This document shows positions 8,679 through 55,584 of a stretch of 64,000 nt of DNA, in pieces. The notes beneath the pieces are model-generated. The model saw nothing but the letters and a program-made list of their open reading frames with translations, was not told where the DNA came from and did no database searches. The position numbers and the translations under genes are program-made. The stretch spans positions 10,096-74,095 of the forward strand of contig CP064977.1 of assembly GCA_016699465.1 (NCBI GenBank), written 5' to 3'. The DNA is from Candidatus Campbellbacteria bacterium (GTDB taxonomy: Bacteria > Patescibacteriota > Minisyncoccia > Phycocordibacterales > EsbW-18). The first letter of the stretch is position 1. Each line of letters starts with the position of its first letter.

Positions 8679-9074
8679 ACCGTTCTCCTTTCGAGAGGGA
8701 AGTTGTTTGGTTTCCTGATATATTCAATCCCTTGCGGGACGAATTTCCAAATTCATAATGTTAAAGTACTTCTGAGATATAGTATATCATAAAGAGTCAA
8801 AAAGTCAAGTGGTGCGTATTCAAAAATACGGCTTTGTAAGGCCATATTATGATGATTTGATCACGATGATTTTATGAGATAACTCGGTCATAAAGATTTC
8901 ATGGGAGGACTCGGCTAAGCGCTCACTCGCCGCCGCCGTTCCTTGTTCCGCTTAGCCATGCTCGCGCGACACCGCCTACTGACGGCGTATCCGCGCTCGC
9001 TTTCGAGTCCTCTCTCATCAACAATCAGCATATACAAAACAACACCATTTAAACGGTGTTGTTTTGTATATGTG

Positions 9075-9156
9075 TGGGCGAGAGAGGACTCGAACCTCCA
9101 AGTCTTGCGACACTAGCTCCTAAGGCTAGCGCGTCTACCAATTTCGCCACTCGCCC
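9075..9156 (-). tRNA. tRNA-Leu(TAG), type II with long variable arm
   Basis: Reverse complement folds manually into a cloverleaf with anticodon loop CTTAGGA and a 3-bp D-stem. Confidence 0.8.
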
Positions 9157-9272: not shown

Positions 9273-9321
9273 CTTGGACCACATATGCAAACAGCCCGCA
9301 GGGGCTGTTTGCATATGTGGT
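9273..9321. terminator. Perfect 22-bp stem hairpin (loop gcag) abutting and overlapping the CCA end of tRNA-Lys
   Basis: ggaccacatatgcaaacagccc-gcag-gggctgtttgcatatgtggtcc, read directly. Confidence 0.6.
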
Positions 9322-9393
9322 CCACCCAGTAGGAATCGGACCTACGACCGTCTCCTTAAGAGGGAGCTGCTCTACCAGCTGAGCTATGGGTGG
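9318..9393 (-). tRNA. tRNA-Lys(CTT), CCA encoded
   Basis: Acceptor CCACCCA/TGGGTGG, D-arm GCTCAGCTGGTAGAGC, anticodon loop CTCTTAA, T-loop TCCGATT. Confidence 0.8.
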
Positions 9394-16798: not shown

Positions 16799-16881
16799 GC
16801 GTCGGTGGCGGAGCGGTCAATCGCACTAGACTGTAAATCTAGCGCCTTCGGGCTACGGAGGTTCGAATCCTCCCCGGCGCA
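16799..16881 (+). tRNA. tRNA-Tyr(GTA), type II, no encoded CCA
   Basis: Anticodon stem-loop CTAGA-CTGTAAA-TCTAG, long variable arm, T-arm GGAGG-TTCGAAT-CCTCC. Confidence 0.8.
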
Positions 16882-16885
16882 CAGA

Positions 16886-16922
16886 ATGAAAAATACACCA
16901 GCAATGCCTGGTGTATTTTTCA
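16886..16922. terminator. Rho-independent terminator hairpin after tRNA-Tyr
   Basis: aaaaatacaccag-caatgc-ctggtgtattttt. Confidence 0.6.
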
Positions 16923-16996
16923 TTCTGATGCTATTGGGAGAGGAGGATTCGAAGGCCGTATCCAGTGAGTAAAATATTCCTGATGCTGTTGAACTA

Positions 16997-18678: not shown

Positions 18679-19128
18679 ATGAAGCCTACTCTATGGATTA
18701 TTATTGGCATCGTGATAGGTGCACTTGCACTGGCTTTTTTTGTGCGTATACCATCTAGTAATCAAAAAAAGGCGGCGATATCAATTGGTAAGACAAACAT
18801 TAATCTCGAAGTAGCTGACACGGACGTATTAAGAACACAAGGATTGAGTGGTCGCGAATCGCTCGCATCTACCACGGGAATGTTGTTTGTATTTGATGAA
18901 TCAGATACGTATGGTTTTTGGATGAAAGATATGCGTTTTCCTTTGGATATTATTTGGCTTGATGAACAAGGTGTTGTTGTACATATTGAATATAATGTCG
19001 CTCCAGAAACATACCCAAGTGTTCTTACACCAAATGAAAAAGCGCTCTATGTATTAGAAGTGAATGCTGGCGTTGCAAGCGAATTACTTATTGAGAAGGG
19101 GACACGGCTCGATATTGTGTTCAAGTAA
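18679..19128 (+). CDS. DUF192 (COG1430) secreted/membrane-anchored protein
   Basis: Signal/TM segment, then VEVADTD..RTQGLSGRESL..GMLFVF....FWMKDMRFPLDIIWLD..G.VV.I, the characteristic DUF192 layout. Confidence 0.7.
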   Translation: MKPTLWIIIGIVIGALALAFFVRIPSSNQKKAAISIGKTNINLEVADTDVLRTQGLSGRESLASTTGMLFVFDESDTYGFWMKDMRFPLDIIWLDEQGVVVHIEYNVAPETYPSVLTPNEKALYVLEVNAGVASELLIEKGTRLDIVFK

Positions 19129-19164
19129 GCATGTGCACAAAAACCCGCGTGAAGCAGGTTTTTG

Positions 19165-19712
19165 TGATAACGCTTGTACGTGTAAGCCGAATTCTGTAGT
19201 CGTTTTTCGCGACCGACAATCATTTATCTTGCCCCAGTCATTACTGAAGGGGTCTTTGCGGTTCTTCCAGCACACAATTTACCATTATCTCTTTTGTTGT
19301 TGCGTAGAGTTTTTTGAAAACCCCTTCGATAGGACAACAATGGTAAATTGTGTGCTGGACACGACCTTGCATGTAGGTAAGGATTTTGCCGTTTCACTTC
19401 GATGTTGCCATCGAAATAATCCACAAGGGATTGTTTGTGCGTTGCCACACAAACCGTCACTGCTCGCACCTCTATACTTGCGTATGATGGGCGTTACCCA
19501 CTACCGTCCTGCTAATCTCACCCACCGAAGATGTTTGCACATTTAAGCGCCCCGTTGTAACTTTAAGAAATTACAGGGCCCCGCCTTCACACTAAAGTGT
19601 TTCGGCGGGATGCTCAATTGTTGCAACTACCTTCGGTAGGCAAAATTGGCACATGTTCGGACTTTCCTCACTCTGTGAAAGAACACAGGCGCGATTGCCC
19701 TGTACAAGCAGG
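19165..19712 (-). ncRNA. rnpB: RNase P RNA (bacterial type A-like), unusually long at about 550 nt with insertions
   Basis: Minus-strand reading contains the P4 5' strand GAGGAAAGTCCGAAC (forward 19655-19668) and the P4 3' strand ACAGAATTCGGCTTAC (forward 19181-19196). A P1 pairing GCTTGTAC/GTACAAGC lies at the ends. Other matches are GGTAACGCC (the P9 region) and GATAAATGATTGTC...GACTACAGAA (the region before the 3' P4). Ends are approximate. Confidence 0.6.
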
Positions 19713-19717
19713 AGAAG

Positions 19718-19813
19718 TATACCCAGCACTAAATGTTTTGCAAGCCCAACACTAAATTTTAGTGTTGGGCAAGTCCACAATTACCCCGTATTTTATGTTT
19801 AGTGCTGGGTATA
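19718..19813. repeat. Nested palindromic element upstream (on the minus strand) of rnpB. The motif CC(A/G)GCACTAAA occurs four times in alternating orientation, including a near-perfect 27-bp palindrome.
   Basis: Outer arms acccagcactaaa (19721-19733) and tttagtgctgggt (19798-19810). Inner arms gcccaacactaaa (19744-19756) and tttagtgttgggc (19758-19770). Confidence 0.6.
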
Positions 19814-19909
19814 CGTGTAATTTTAAACAAAAGCAAGCCTAGAGCACAACCTTGTTTTAGTGACTCTTTCATACGAACCTGCTATCATTTGTAGTGCATA
19901 TAGATTGTT

Positions 19910-21589
19910 ATGATACAAAGGTTTTTTGCACTTTTCTCAACAAAGATAGAAAGTCTCCATAATGCGGCGTACGTCATCGCTTTTTTTGCTCTTACATCAC
20001 AACTATTAGGTCTCATACGAGATCGGCTATTGGCACACACGTTTGGCGCGAGTGCATCCCTCGATGTGTACTATGCATCTTTTAGGATTCCCGATGTTAT
20101 ATTTGCGTCAATTGCCTCATTTGTGTCTTTGTTTGTCCTCATTCCGTTTCTTACTAAAAGATTGGAAACAGATCGGAGGGATGCGCGTCAGTTTCTTTCT
20201 GAAGTGACGACAGTATTTACGCTTTTCATGGTTGGTAGTAGTGCCATACTATGGTTTCTCGTTCCTTCACTCTCACATTTTTTGTATCCAGGATTTTCTA
20301 TCAATGAATTGCACGTTCTTGTTTCACTCACGCGGATACTCTTGTTGTCACCAATTCTTCTTGGGTTGTCCAATATTGTTGCAAGCGTGACGCAGGTAAC
20401 AAAAAAGTTTTTTGTATATGCTCTTTCACCCATTTTGTATAACGCCGGCATTATCGTTGGTGTTGTTGTTTTTTATCCACTCTTTGGTATGTCAGGGTTA
20501 ACATACGGAGTTGTCTTGGGTGCTCTCTTACATCTCGGTATTCAAATTCCAACACTCATCACTGAACGACTTGTTCCGCAAATAACAACATCCATTGTGT
20601 GGTCAGATATTGCATCGTTGGTATATGTTTCTATACCGAGAACGATGGCGCTCGCATTTGATCAAATTATTTTAATGATACTTATTGGTATAGCGTCACG
20701 GTTTCCTGCGGGTTCTATTACGGTATTCACGTTTGCCCTTAATGTGAATTTAGCTCCGCTTACCATTATTGGTGTTTCGTATTCTGTGGCGGCGTTTCCT
20801 ACGTTGGTACATCTTTTTTCAAGTGGAAAGAAGGATGTGTTTGTTGAACACCTATTAACCGCAGTTCGACATATTCTTTTTTGGTCGTTACCAGCAACAA
20901 TGTTATTTATTGTGCTTCGAGCACACATTGTTCGACTCCTTTTTGGATCGGGAGCTTTTGATTGGTCGGCAACGCGTTTGACCGCAGCTGCAATGGCAAT
21001 GCTCGTGGTGTCACTTACAGCACACTGCATCGTGCTTCTCTTTGTGCGTGGATATTATGCTGCGGGAAAGACGGCGCGACCGTTTTGGGTGAATGTATCG
21101 ACATCAGCTCTGACCCTCTGTGCTTCCTATGGAAGTGTTGTCTTGTATCAACACGTTGATTGGGTGCGTTATTTTATTGAGTCACTCTTTCGTGTTGATG
21201 ATGTGCCGGGCACTATTGTTATTATGCTTTCGCTTGGATATAGCGTTGGGATGATAGCAAATGCCATTGGGTACGTGCTTCTTTTTAGAAAAGATTTTGG
21301 CGGACATTTACCTGAGTCTGTATATAGAACGTTTTGGCAAAGTTTTGCCGCCTCGGTTATTGCTGGTGCCAGTGCGTACATTACGCTTAGGGTATTGGAG
21401 CCGTTCGTGCACCTCGATTCGTTTATGGGTGTTTTGTCGCAGGGTATGAGTGCAGCCTTCGTTGGATTTGGTATTTATATTGTCATACTTGTTGGGCTAC
21501 ATAACCAAGAAGTTGCCGAGATGTGGCACACGCTTCACGCGAAGTTCTGGCGCGAGAAAACAATTATTCCAAACCCTGAGGAACTGTAG
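19910..21589 (+). CDS. murJ: Lipid II flippase MurJ (MviN family)
   Basis: About 14 TM helices and the N-terminal region LGLIRDRLLAHTFGAS...YYASFRIPD, characteristic of MurJ. Confidence 0.85.
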   Translation: MIQRFFALFSTKIESLHNAAYVIAFFALTSQLLGLIRDRLLAHTFGASASLDVYYASFRIPDVIFASIASFVSLFVLIPFLTKRLETDRRDARQFLSEVTTVFTLFMVGSSAILWFLVPSLSHFLYPGFSINELHVLVSLTRILLLSPILLGLSNIVASVTQVTKKFFVYALSPILYNAGIIVGVVVFYPLFGMSGLTYGVVLGALLHLGIQIPTLITERLVPQITTSIVWSDIASLVYVSIPRTMALAFDQIILMILIGIASRFPAGSITVFTFALNVNLAPLTIIGVSYSVAAFPTLVHLFSSGKKDVFVEHLLTAVRHILFWSLPATMLFIVLRAHIVRLLFGSGAFDWSATRLTAAAMAMLVVSLTAHCIVLLFVRGYYAAGKTARPFWVNVSTSALTLCASYGSVVLYQHVDWVRYFIESLFRVDDVPGTIVIMLSLGYSVGMIANAIGYVLLFRKDFGGHLPESVYRTFWQSFAASVIAGASAYITLRVLEPFVHLDSFMGVLSQGMSAAFVGFGIYIVILVGLHNQEVAEMWHTLHAKFWREKTIIPNPEEL

Positions 21590-43635: not shown

Positions 43636-43989
43636 AAACTTTGGACGGTTTTGTTATGAAGGATCGTATAGGTAGCAAAAAGCTCCTAGCCAGATCCGAT
43701 ATACCCCGTGAGGTATACCCATACCCGTTTCCAGATATGACCGTCCAAAGTAGACTCTGACTAGGAGTTCTTTACTTTGGACGGATTTTGCGACCATATC
43801 CTGTAATTGCTTACAGGGGTTAGGTCTCTGTATTAACTTGTAAATGAATAATAACATTTTTGACCCTATTATTCAATTTAAATTCTATCGCAAACCCCTA
43901 GTTTTGCTAAGGCTAGTACGCGAGTACGCTACGTTTTTTTAGTTCTGCATAGACTTAGCAAGACTAGTGTTCTCTGTCATTAATATAGT

Positions 43990-54853: not shown

Positions 54854-54859
54854 ACGCAA

Positions 54860-54900
54860 CAACAAAAAGAGCAACAAATTATGTTGCTCTTTTTGTTGTT
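54860..54900. terminator. Rho-independent terminator closing the copper cluster
   Basis: caacaaaaagagcaacaaattatgttgctctttttgttg. Confidence 0.6.
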
Positions 54901-55334: not shown

Positions 55335-55408
55335 GGCCTTATCGTCTAGCCTGGTTAGGACGTCACCCTTTCACGGTGAAAACTCGGGTTCGAATCCCGA
55401 TAAGGTCA
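55335..55408 (+). tRNA. tRNA-Glu(TTC)
   Basis: Anticodon stem-loop TCACC-CTTTCAC-GGTGA, T-arm TCGGG-TTCGAAT-CCCGA. Confidence 0.75.
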
Positions 55409-55584
55409 CAACACAAAACAAAAATGCCCCAACCGGGCGTTTTTGTTTTATGTCTGAGTGACCGAAATAGCAGACAAACTGTTTTGTCTGCGTCGGGATT
55501 CGAATGACGGAGCATGTTTGTGAAAGCTTTCAAAAACAGCGAGTCAGGGCCTAACCCGAGGCGAGCGACGGCGAGCCGAGAGGT

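Follow-up and report, generated by a model that had tools for sequence, protein, structure and literature searches.

What has enlarged the RNase P RNA gene of a Candidatus Campbellbacteria bacterium, and how could the RNA have taken up the extra length? The stretch of DNA analysed here (the window; 64,000 nucleotides of contig CP064977.1, positions 10,096 to 74,095) carries this gene, rnpB, on its minus strand. The original prediction, made from the letters of the window alone, had put the RNA at about 550 nucleotides (nt), had pointed to a perfect inverted repeat within it, and had raised the possibility of a large lineage-specific insertion or a small element inserted into the gene. Following this up by comparison with related genomes, we arrive at a reading to which we give a probability of about 0.62, namely that rnpB was enlarged by two discrete, self-folding modules, which come from two different hairpin repeat families and sit at the tips of peripheral helices. 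The gene exceeds those of its shortest relatives by about 180 bases. Throughout, G000 denotes the genome of the window, a single complete contig of 811,376 bases, and other G numbers denote genomes of relatives.

The RNase P RNA gene of the window

A default Rfam scan of the window returned 13 matches, made up of 12 tRNAs and a LOOT RNA, and no RNase P RNA, because rnpB scores under the gathering threshold of the bacterial type-A model RF00010 (100 bits). A permissive search of window positions 18900-20000 (1.1 kb) did place RF00010 on the minus strand at 19167-19710, with model positions 1-367 aligned over 544 nt at 70.2 bits and an expectation value (E) of 4.8e-21. The covariance-model search had been chosen in advance as the check that could overturn the gene call, by coming back empty; it returned this sub-threshold match on the predicted strand, and the measured length agrees with the one that had been proposed. 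Module-free members of the genus score 104-126 bits with the same model, and it is the two insertions described below that bring the G000 gene under the cut-off. The match is the only one to RF00010 in the complete genome, which encodes the RnpA protein elsewhere (PF00825, 47 bits against a cut-off of 22.3). In the Rfam alignment both P4 strands are conserved, and P1-P3, P15 and P18, the last with a GUAA loop, stand in order; the gene can be aligned throughout with 12 homologues from the genus (MAFFT alignment of 13 sequences including G000). To judge from its sequence, this type-A RNase P RNA gene is the working one of the organism, present in a single copy, and despite the modules its product should retain the catalytic core (P1-P5, P15 and P18) and a specificity domain of normal size.

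A crude check of the 46 tRNA genes of G000 found no CCA in the last three bases called by ARAGORN or in the next three for 31 of them; in the remaining 15, the CCA may be stem plus discriminator. Most tRNA genes of G000 appear to lack an encoded 3' CCA, which fits the small P15 internal loop of the genus and hints that the P15 loop of this RNase P RNA need not bind CCA.

Among 41 related genomes surveyed with RF00010, 39 gave a match and 21 gave one over the cut-off. Within the genus the gene ranges from 346 to 544 nt, G000 having the longest, and the sites at which length varies in the 13-sequence alignment are P3, the junction between P5 and P7, P12, P16/17 and a hairpin at the P19 position. 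In the core, taken as the 313 columns free of gaps in every aligned rnpB sequence, the closest relative of G000 is G001 with 91% identity, and G002 is 75% identical. Far larger rnpB genes occur at loci L050 (G056), L052 (G274) and L046 (G040), where the two P4 strands are 863, 609 and 632 nt apart, respectively, against 472 nt in G000, and where RF00010 reaches only 24-52 bits.

A long perfect hairpin in the P15-P17 arm

The inverted repeat that drew attention to the locus is perfect and encloses 52 nt, both as originally read; its arms are one pair longer than had been stated, 21 instead of 20 base pairs (bp), and lie at 19266-19286 and 19339-19359. A simple calculation puts the number of perfect 21-bp repeats expected by chance in 64 kb, at such spacing, at about 1e-6. 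A scan of the window found 11 inverted repeats of at least 16 nt, of which four are perfect and at least 19 bp long, and long perfect hairpins are therefore a feature of this genome. The hairpin as a whole, which we call module 1, folds with a minimum free energy of -40.5 kcal/mol.

Its location had been misjudged. The repeat was thought to stand where P13 and P14 would lie, but both hairpins are present, as assigned by MAFFT alignment to G006, whose P13 and P14 are aligned by Rfam. In the Rfam alignment of the G000 gene the repeat follows the 5' strand of P15 and precedes its 3' strand, directly before P18, a site that we take to be the P16/P17 arm, with helix names carried over from the type-A structure. 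Alignment to related rnpB genes, which had been proposed as a means of locating the insertion, placed it at the same arm. The sister genome G001 has a short ordinary hairpin at P16/17 in place of module 1, which bears out the suggestion of a small inserted element, and this element belongs to a dispersed repeat family (see below).

A counterpart of module 1 occurs in the rnpB gene of G002, at a different helix. The G002 hairpin is exactly 94 nt long, as in G000, and the two align without a gap and with identity at 70 of 94 positions (E 3.9e-13). In G002 it occupies RNA positions 60-153, between P5 and P7, as against 352-445 in the P15-P17 arm of G000, and G002 keeps its own short P16/17 hairpin. 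The G002 stem is likewise a perfect 21 bp; two of its pairs differ from those of G000 on both sides, and neither genome has a wobble pair in the stem. Close relatives differ by presence and absence of the hairpin at one and the same site, as seen for G000 and G001 at P16/17 and for G002 and G013 at P5-P7. Using the whole element as query, we obtained matches at E up to 0.01 in 4 of 17 genomes of the family, near full length in G000 and G002 only, and in 2 of the 401 genomes (223 genera) that formed our BLAST sample of the order. An exact-pattern scan for the hairpin arm gave no match in metagenome contigs and one in genome contigs, which was G002's own record, and a scan with a conserved pattern of the rnpB core recovered three metagenome rnpB genes, none of them with module 1.

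Palindromes and repeats can mislead assemblers, and G000 comes from one assembly. Repeat misassembly as the source of the hairpin, or of the P5-P7 domain described further on, is nevertheless scarcely credible, given that DNA contigs of two other sequencing runs span both hairpin junctions at the G000 site (X1 record 1 covers 19136-19510 and X2 record 11 covers 19252-19486), each differing from G000 at several positions, and that G001 independently has the P5-P7 domain at the same site with 93% identity. The best share of sampled G000 words in any sequencing run was 0.19, and the contigs compared are those of relatives. One of the other-run contigs shows a paired change in the stem, 19277 A>T together with 19348 T>A, and also an unpaired one, 19284 A>G.

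A dispersed family of palindromic repeats

Module 1 is a member of a family of palindromic repeats that are non-coding and dispersed in the genus. Members of this family end in YCCAGCAC...GTGCTGGR and have stems of about 20 bp and very variable interiors; BLAST of the whole stretch gave self-hits only, and the family came to light only via the 7-bp base of the stem. G000 contains eight hairpins closed by CCAGCAC...GTGCTGG, with stems of 11-20 bp and interiors of 4 to more than 100 nt, whereas the two motifs give none when their order is reversed, and shuffled 7-mers give 0.8 on average. Elsewhere in the genus the pattern was counted 15 times in G002, 13 times in G001, six times in G004, five times in G011, four times in G007 and 0-2 times in the rest, with 0-2 for the backwards control, and at least one CCAGCAC-stem hairpin was present in 11 of 15 genus genomes.

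Eight dispersed copies were fetched, seven from G002 and one from G007. Most of them lie between open reading frames (ORFs), two directly after terminator-like hairpins. Each has its own, differently spelled stem of about 20 bp, and several share the sub-terminal motifs of the rnpB copies, as is the case for the G002 copies at C1:145077, C2:47973 and C1:198965, which lie in intergenic gaps. An alignment of ten copies shows conserved terminal inverted repeats around a variable interior. Four of the eight dispersed copies are flanked by the same dinucleotide on both sides (AT three times and GT once), AT being self-complementary and possibly an extension of the stem.

The family also reaches a ribosomal RNA gene. 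One G000 copy precedes the 16S rRNA gene by about 150 nt. The gene itself, which is outside the window, contains a family hairpin of 141 nt at genome positions 665383-665523 (within C1:665150-665850); in the Rfam alignment, 132 nt stand in place of a 4-nt hairpin loop at model positions ~1150-1169. The long-stem hairpins in rnpB of G000 and of G002 are best understood as two landings of one dispersed repeat family, and their location on different helices is therefore no longer a puzzle.

The three host sites share a further property. In the closest subclade of G000 (G001, G002, G011 and G013) the native P16/17 hairpin begins with CC and ends with GG after a conserved GUG, and the native P5-P7 hairpin begins with UCC and ends with GGA; the 16S hairpin that hosts the insert begins with CCCAGC and ends with CUGGG. 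At all three hosts the terminal pairs of the element coincide with the base of the native stem, and the tip is replaced, not split.

Two other family hairpins of G000 outside the window, at 458571-458664 and 600207-600240, have similar upstream sequences of about 45 nt that begin TGATTGATTTT, and a larger repeat unit may lie behind these copies.

A four-hairpin domain at the P5-P7 junction

The inverted repeat accounts for one part of the oversize; most of the surplus, about 125-130 nt, had been missed and lies between P5 and P7. The two P5 strands are separated by 280 nt, as compared with 160 model positions, and the excess is a domain of about 145 nt directly after P5, which we call module 2 and which G001 has at the same site. 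The first 47-70 nt of module 2 recur with 81-88% identity in 21 of the 401 order genomes (18 of 223 genera), with one to three matches in each. Nineteen of these loci were fetched: 18 have an RF00010 match, and the nineteenth is a 23S rRNA gene whose match to module 2 falls within a group I intron hit. The full domain measures 117-147 nt and consists of a first arm hairpin (H1), two central hairpins and a last arm hairpin (H4), which at the DNA level is the reverse complement of H1. According to an alignment of 23 arm hairpins, H1 has a conserved stem with a bulged A near its base and a 2-nt bulge, and a variable tip.

We compared two folds of module 2 on an alignment of 11 domains against 500 shuffles. 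With local hairpins, 93.8% of cells are paired, and 14 pairs and 34 cells are changed on both sides, a result that none of the 500 shuffles reached. The long-range stem between the arms, which is the RNAfold minimum, pairs 84.9% of cells with three pairs changed on both sides, 375 of 500 shuffles reaching as high, and was rejected. Module 2 folds into local hairpins, a structure that covariation supports.

From its position next to the P4 strands and from Rfam alignments, we judge the domain to lie at P5-P7 in G000, G001, G040, G238 and G069, at P3 in G328, at P19 in G328, G338 and G329, and in the P15-P17 arm in G166 and G329; in G279 (locus L056), Rfam puts a 185-nt gap inside a doubtful P8. 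The tip of P16/17 is occupied by module 1 in G000 and by module 2 in other genomes. At E up to 10, Rfam gave no family besides RF00010 for either module. The four-hairpin domain, an RNA motif that has support from covariation and no Rfam family, occurs at four RNase P RNA helices across the order.

A covariance model of H1, R1, was run on an order sample of 151 genomes from 131 genera and matched in 28 genomes, each of a different genus; 123 genomes were without a match. G000 has two R1 matches, which are the two arms of the rnpB domain, whereas G155 has nine and G136 six, on different contigs. Fetching further R1 loci led to rnpB genes, to another group I intron hit, to a position 82 nt upstream of a 16S rRNA gene, to one ahead of a tRNA, and to gaps between ORFs; the dispersed copies mostly have the sense of the neighbouring ORFs, whose calls were mechanical. 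In G136, five of the six H1 copies are directly followed by a CCAGCAC-stem hairpin, and the two families can therefore form one composite.

A group I intron origin of module 2 was also considered and rejected: only H1 and H2 are shared with the intron at locus L053, and Rfam finds no intron in the window stretch. At locus L066 (G155:C3:42800-44400), positions 636-914 give a group I intron hit of 48.3 bits (cut-off 50) with an inverted H1 pair inside; neither an rRNA nor a tRNA host was detected within the 1.6 kb that had been fetched.

When 34 rnpB sequences were compared all against all, 2817 high-scoring segment pairs resulted and, among them, four similarities between non-homologous helices. 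Besides the hairpin of G000 and G002, these are an exact duplicate of a 34-nt hairpin within the rnpB gene of G007 (locus L020; RNA positions 68-101 at the P5-P7 site and 335-368 at the P19 site), a stretch of 18 nt in the P16/17 hairpin of G001 that recurs exactly in a P14-position hairpin of G016, and a weak one, a 16-nt GC-rich hairpin common to G023 (P16/17) and G004 (P3). The last two are short and simple, and could be taken to mean that the P16/P17 and P5-P7 hairpins were lengthened in place by ordinary helix growth, through duplication and drift, and that their resemblance to other sites is a convergence of stable hairpins. The lengths of P3, P12, P16/17 and P19 indeed vary within the genus and among metagenome relatives, and extended helices in rnpB of the Candidate Phyla Radiation (CPR) are described in passages of a published survey (PMC8172020). 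We consider this explanation very unlikely, as it would have to produce 94-nt hairpins of equal length and 74% identity at non-homologous helices, dispersed genomic copies with the same sub-terminal motifs, and a module 2 in which 47-70 nt keep 81-88% identity from family to family and at four helices; the exact duplicate in G007 is not convergence either.

Possible roles of the modules as RNA

A perfect duplex of 21 bp is the kind of substrate that RNase III cuts, and G000 has an RNase III gene (PF14622, 134 bits). Together with the freedom from wobble pairs in both G000 and G002, with a stem base that also closes the 16S insert and the hairpin upstream of the 16S rRNA gene, and with the sporadic occurrence among close relatives, this would suit an intervening sequence (IVS): module 1 and its 141-nt relative in 16S rRNA would be excised by RNase III or a dedicated nuclease, and RNase P RNA would act as two pieces held together by P1-P4 and P15. 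Module 2, by contrast, consists of separate short hairpins and has no long duplex, so that excision could cover module 1 at most, and we think it unlikely even there. To our knowledge, there is no natural two-piece bacterial RNase P RNA. Contigs from RNA sequencing runs of relatives are 98-99% identical to G000 in the flank (two to three differences over 19360-19510). Where G000 has module 2 they carry a hairpin of 16 nt, and their P16/17 also differs; the DNA of G013 encodes the same form, which is therefore an allele free of the modules and no product of splicing. These contigs leave 19266-19359 uncovered and are uninformative on expression or excision.

The conservation of H1 raises the question of whether the hairpins are relocatable functional modules, that is, putative binding sites for a protein or processing factor that would act wherever a hairpin protrudes, so that evolution could move the sites between helices, introns and leaders. 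The arm-hairpin fold is supported by covariation, and its stem sequence is conserved across 28 of 131 genera; in the rnpB sense G.U outnumbers A.C by 14 to 6; dispersed single copies mostly run in the same direction as the gene next to them and are found behind terminators and upstream of genes, of 16S rRNA and of tRNA; and the composite of H1 with the CCAGCAC stem is fixed in five of the six G136 copies. However, the rnpB domain has one arm in sense and the other as its reverse complement, which as RNA are different hairpins, most order genomes are without a match, sister strains do without the module, and no candidate protein was identified. We regard such a function as rather unlikely.

It is also conceivable, although we would not expect it, that the two hairpin families make up a shared kit of expansion segments for structured RNAs (RNase P RNA, 16S rRNA, group I introns, and rRNA and tRNA leaders), recognised by a common cellular factor. 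In the boldest form of this idea, the CCAGCAC/GUGCUGG stem would be a putative processing signal, RNase P RNA and 16S rRNA would both be matured by hairpin excision, and H1 would be the putative binding site of one protein acting on all these RNAs. If excision were true, the RNA of G000 would be the first natural split bacterial RNase P RNA.

How the modules may have spread

The reading that we prefer remains enlargement by modules from two repeat families. Module 1 would have taken the place of an ordinary P16/P17 hairpin. The repeats may spread at the DNA level, either in the manner of miniature inverted-repeat transposable elements (MITEs) or repetitive extragenic palindromic (REP) sequences, or by template switching from one hairpin to another of identical pairing. 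In a gene-dense genome of 0.8 Mb they would survive only where they are harmless, presumably in the gaps between genes and, within structural RNA genes such as rnpB, 16S rRNA and group I introns, at hairpin tips exposed to solvent. At such tips the terminal pairs of the element, CC(A)...(U)GG, would continue the native stem, and the modules would then be carried in the transcript as expansion segments and probably retained in the mature RNA. Template switching, microhomology-guided replacement or a helix-preserving filter would fit better than cut-and-paste transposition, because the native tip is replaced and unsplit and the terminal pairs coincide with those of the native stem.

Several observations weigh against this reading. 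BLAST of a 106-nt stretch in G000 returned self-hits only, which leaves the interior of module 1 without a second copy, and module 2, with its H1 family, is confined to rnpB in G000. The Y1 transposase domain PF01797 has no match in G000 and is also absent from G136; it is found in 7 of 15 genus genomes, never adjoining a hairpin. Four of five transposase loci were fetched. Three of these have no R1 match at E up to 0.01, and the fourth (G060) shows an apparent adjacency only because the hairpins lie in a neighbouring rnpB gene. A REP-associated tyrosine transposase (RAYT) or other Y1 transposase as the mobiliser was rejected, there being no consistent link to the hairpins. We saw no clear target-site duplication around the copies, as a flanking T...A or AT...AT is inseparable from an extension of the inverted repeat, and the replacement of a native tip without splitting makes the rnpB module less like a cut-and-paste insertion. 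The element is 74% identical between G000 and G002, which is not above the core rnpB identity of 75%, and there is therefore no signal of recent transfer between the two. The covariation of module 2 points to selection at the RNA level, for which purely selfish DNA has no need, and its excess of G.U over A.C in the rnpB sense is a weak hint in the same direction. Lastly, the variant 19284 A>G in X1, a single low-depth contig, produces an A.C mismatch in the rnpB sense.

Features of the locus and other observations

The features of the locus are collected in Table 1. The terminator-like hairpin past the 3' end of rnpB was not flagged by a consensus terminator scan; weak Rfam matches to terminator-bearing families align a stem there. 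The nested palindrome upstream sits in the divergent gap to a 559-aa ORF (19910-21589), and its inner hairpin is related in sequence to its outer arms. It is a member of the CCAGCAC...GTGCTGG family (family match at 19723-19808), and may represent either an operator or a further landing of this repeat family.

Table 1. Features of rnpB and its flanks in window coordinates.
Feature	Position	Strand	Basis
rnpB, bacterial type-A RNase P RNA, 544 nt	19167..19710	-	RF00010 match
Promoter-like TTGCAA-16 nt-TATACT, ending 6 nt upstream of the predicted RNA 5' end	19716..19743	-	consensus match only, 9/12
Nested palindrome covering the rnpB promoter, outer arms perfect over 17 bp (GTATACCCAGCACTAAA), inner hairpin of 13 bp	19717..19814		inverted-repeat scan
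5' strands of P1, P2, P3, P4 and P5, RNA positions 1-59	19652..19710	-	Rfam alignment, relatives
Module 2, four-hairpin domain of ~145 nt at the P5-P7 junction	19508..19652	-	Rfam alignment, covariation, model R1
Arm hairpin H1 of module 2	19610-19652	-	R1 match
Arm hairpin H4 of module 2, reverse complement of H1 at the DNA level	19509-19550	-	R1 match
Specificity domain of ordinary size: P7-P12, P13/P14-position hairpins, returning strands to P5	19370..19508	-	MAFFT to G006/G011, local folds
P13-position hairpin	about 19418-19432	-	alignment to G006
P14-position hairpin	about 19398-19415	-	alignment to G006
Module 1, 94-nt long-stem hairpin in place of the distal P16/P17 hairpin	19266..19359	-	inverted repeat, Rfam position, homologues
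P15 3' strand and P18 (GUAA loop)	19229..19265	-	Rfam alignment
P2 3' strand, short P19-position hairpin, P4 3' strand, P1 3' strand	19167..19228	-	Rfam alignment, local fold
Terminator-like hairpin followed by a U-run, just after the rnpB 3' end	19137..19165	-	read from sequence

Elsewhere in the window, the LOOT RNA (RF03000) lies on the minus strand at 43698-43826 and scores 80 bits against a gathering score of 46.4. At three tRNA loci (9002-9094, 16862-16953 and 55389-55504) the 3' end of the tRNA (TTCGAATCC...) recurs in inverted orientation 30-66 nt downstream, with 71-86% complementarity. Perfect hairpins of 23, 20 and 19 bp with loops of 4-6 nt are found at 9275-9324, 16882-16927 and 54858-54900, respectively, at least the first two of them directly beside tRNA genes.

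Relation to known systems

Oversized RNase P RNAs that fall below standard thresholds have been published for the CPR; a modular origin that moves between sites we did not find in print. Our literature search, which left subscription journals and supplements outside, gave no account of repeat modules shared by rnpB helices, 16S rRNA, introns and intergenic sites in CPR or Saccharibacteria. In passages of their 2021 study, Lui, Nielsen and Arkin state that an RNase P RNA seemed to be missing from 10 of 35 circular CPR genomes until thresholds were lowered, that most structures had to be refolded manually owing to large helix extensions, including an extended P15, or to missing helices, and that 23 of 35 were without the CCA-binding motif (PMC8172020). 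The G000 RNA resembles those described there in being type A, in its sub-threshold score and in its expanded P15-P17 arm. It differs from the structures described in these passages in that the extensions are discrete modules, common to several helices, to other RNAs and to intergenic sites.

If our reading holds, CPR RNase P RNA genes may be missed by standard models because they are interrupted by insertion modules, and not because their core has decayed, and a practical remedy would be to mask or to model the modules. The outer helices of an essential ribozyme, a 16S hairpin and group I introns would all be landing sites for the same small repeat families in compact genomes. The rnpB genes of the order would also amount to a natural experiment on which RNase P RNA positions tolerate 90-190 extra nt (P3, the P5-P7 junction, P16/17 and P19), and the four-hairpin domain deserves description as an RNA motif.

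For palindromic repeats within RNA genes there is a precedent in Rickettsia bellii, which has 526 such elements, one of them in the tmRNA gene (PMC1458961). The repeats described here are like the Rickettsia palindromic elements (RPEs) in being dispersed palindromes of about 100-150 nt in a reduced genome, some of them inside genes. For RPEs, too, we know of no transposase of their own. Unlike RPEs, which are numerous and enter proteins in frame, our families have 0-15 copies per genome, with only one weak candidate hairpin inside a long ORF (L080, 30.5 bits), and have hit rnpB repeatedly at several helices. A precedent for repeats within rnpB reportedly comes from heterocyst-forming cyanobacteria, in which Vioque is said to have described STRR (short tandemly repeated repetitive) sequences in 1997; these are short heptamers in tandem and not long-stem palindromes.

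REP sequences and their paired form, REPINs, which are linked to the Y1 transposase RAYT, and the Correia elements of Neisseria are imperfect palindromes that often occur as inverted doublets around a spacer. Their copies are scattered through intergenic regions, often behind a terminator, and fold into hairpins once transcribed. Module 2, with H1 and H4 around a spacer, recalls such inverted doublets. In contrast to REPs and REPINs, no RAYT-type gene flanked by the repeats was found in our genomes, and copies number tens at most, not hundreds; insertion into structural RNA genes is, as far as we know, no habit of REPs. IVSs are defined by their excision by RNase III, and we know of none in rnpB. 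With the IVSs of rRNA and the rRNA insertions of CPR the hairpin of G000 shares a long stem that replaces the hairpin tip of a structural RNA, a sporadic distribution, and a genome in which an RNase III gene is present.

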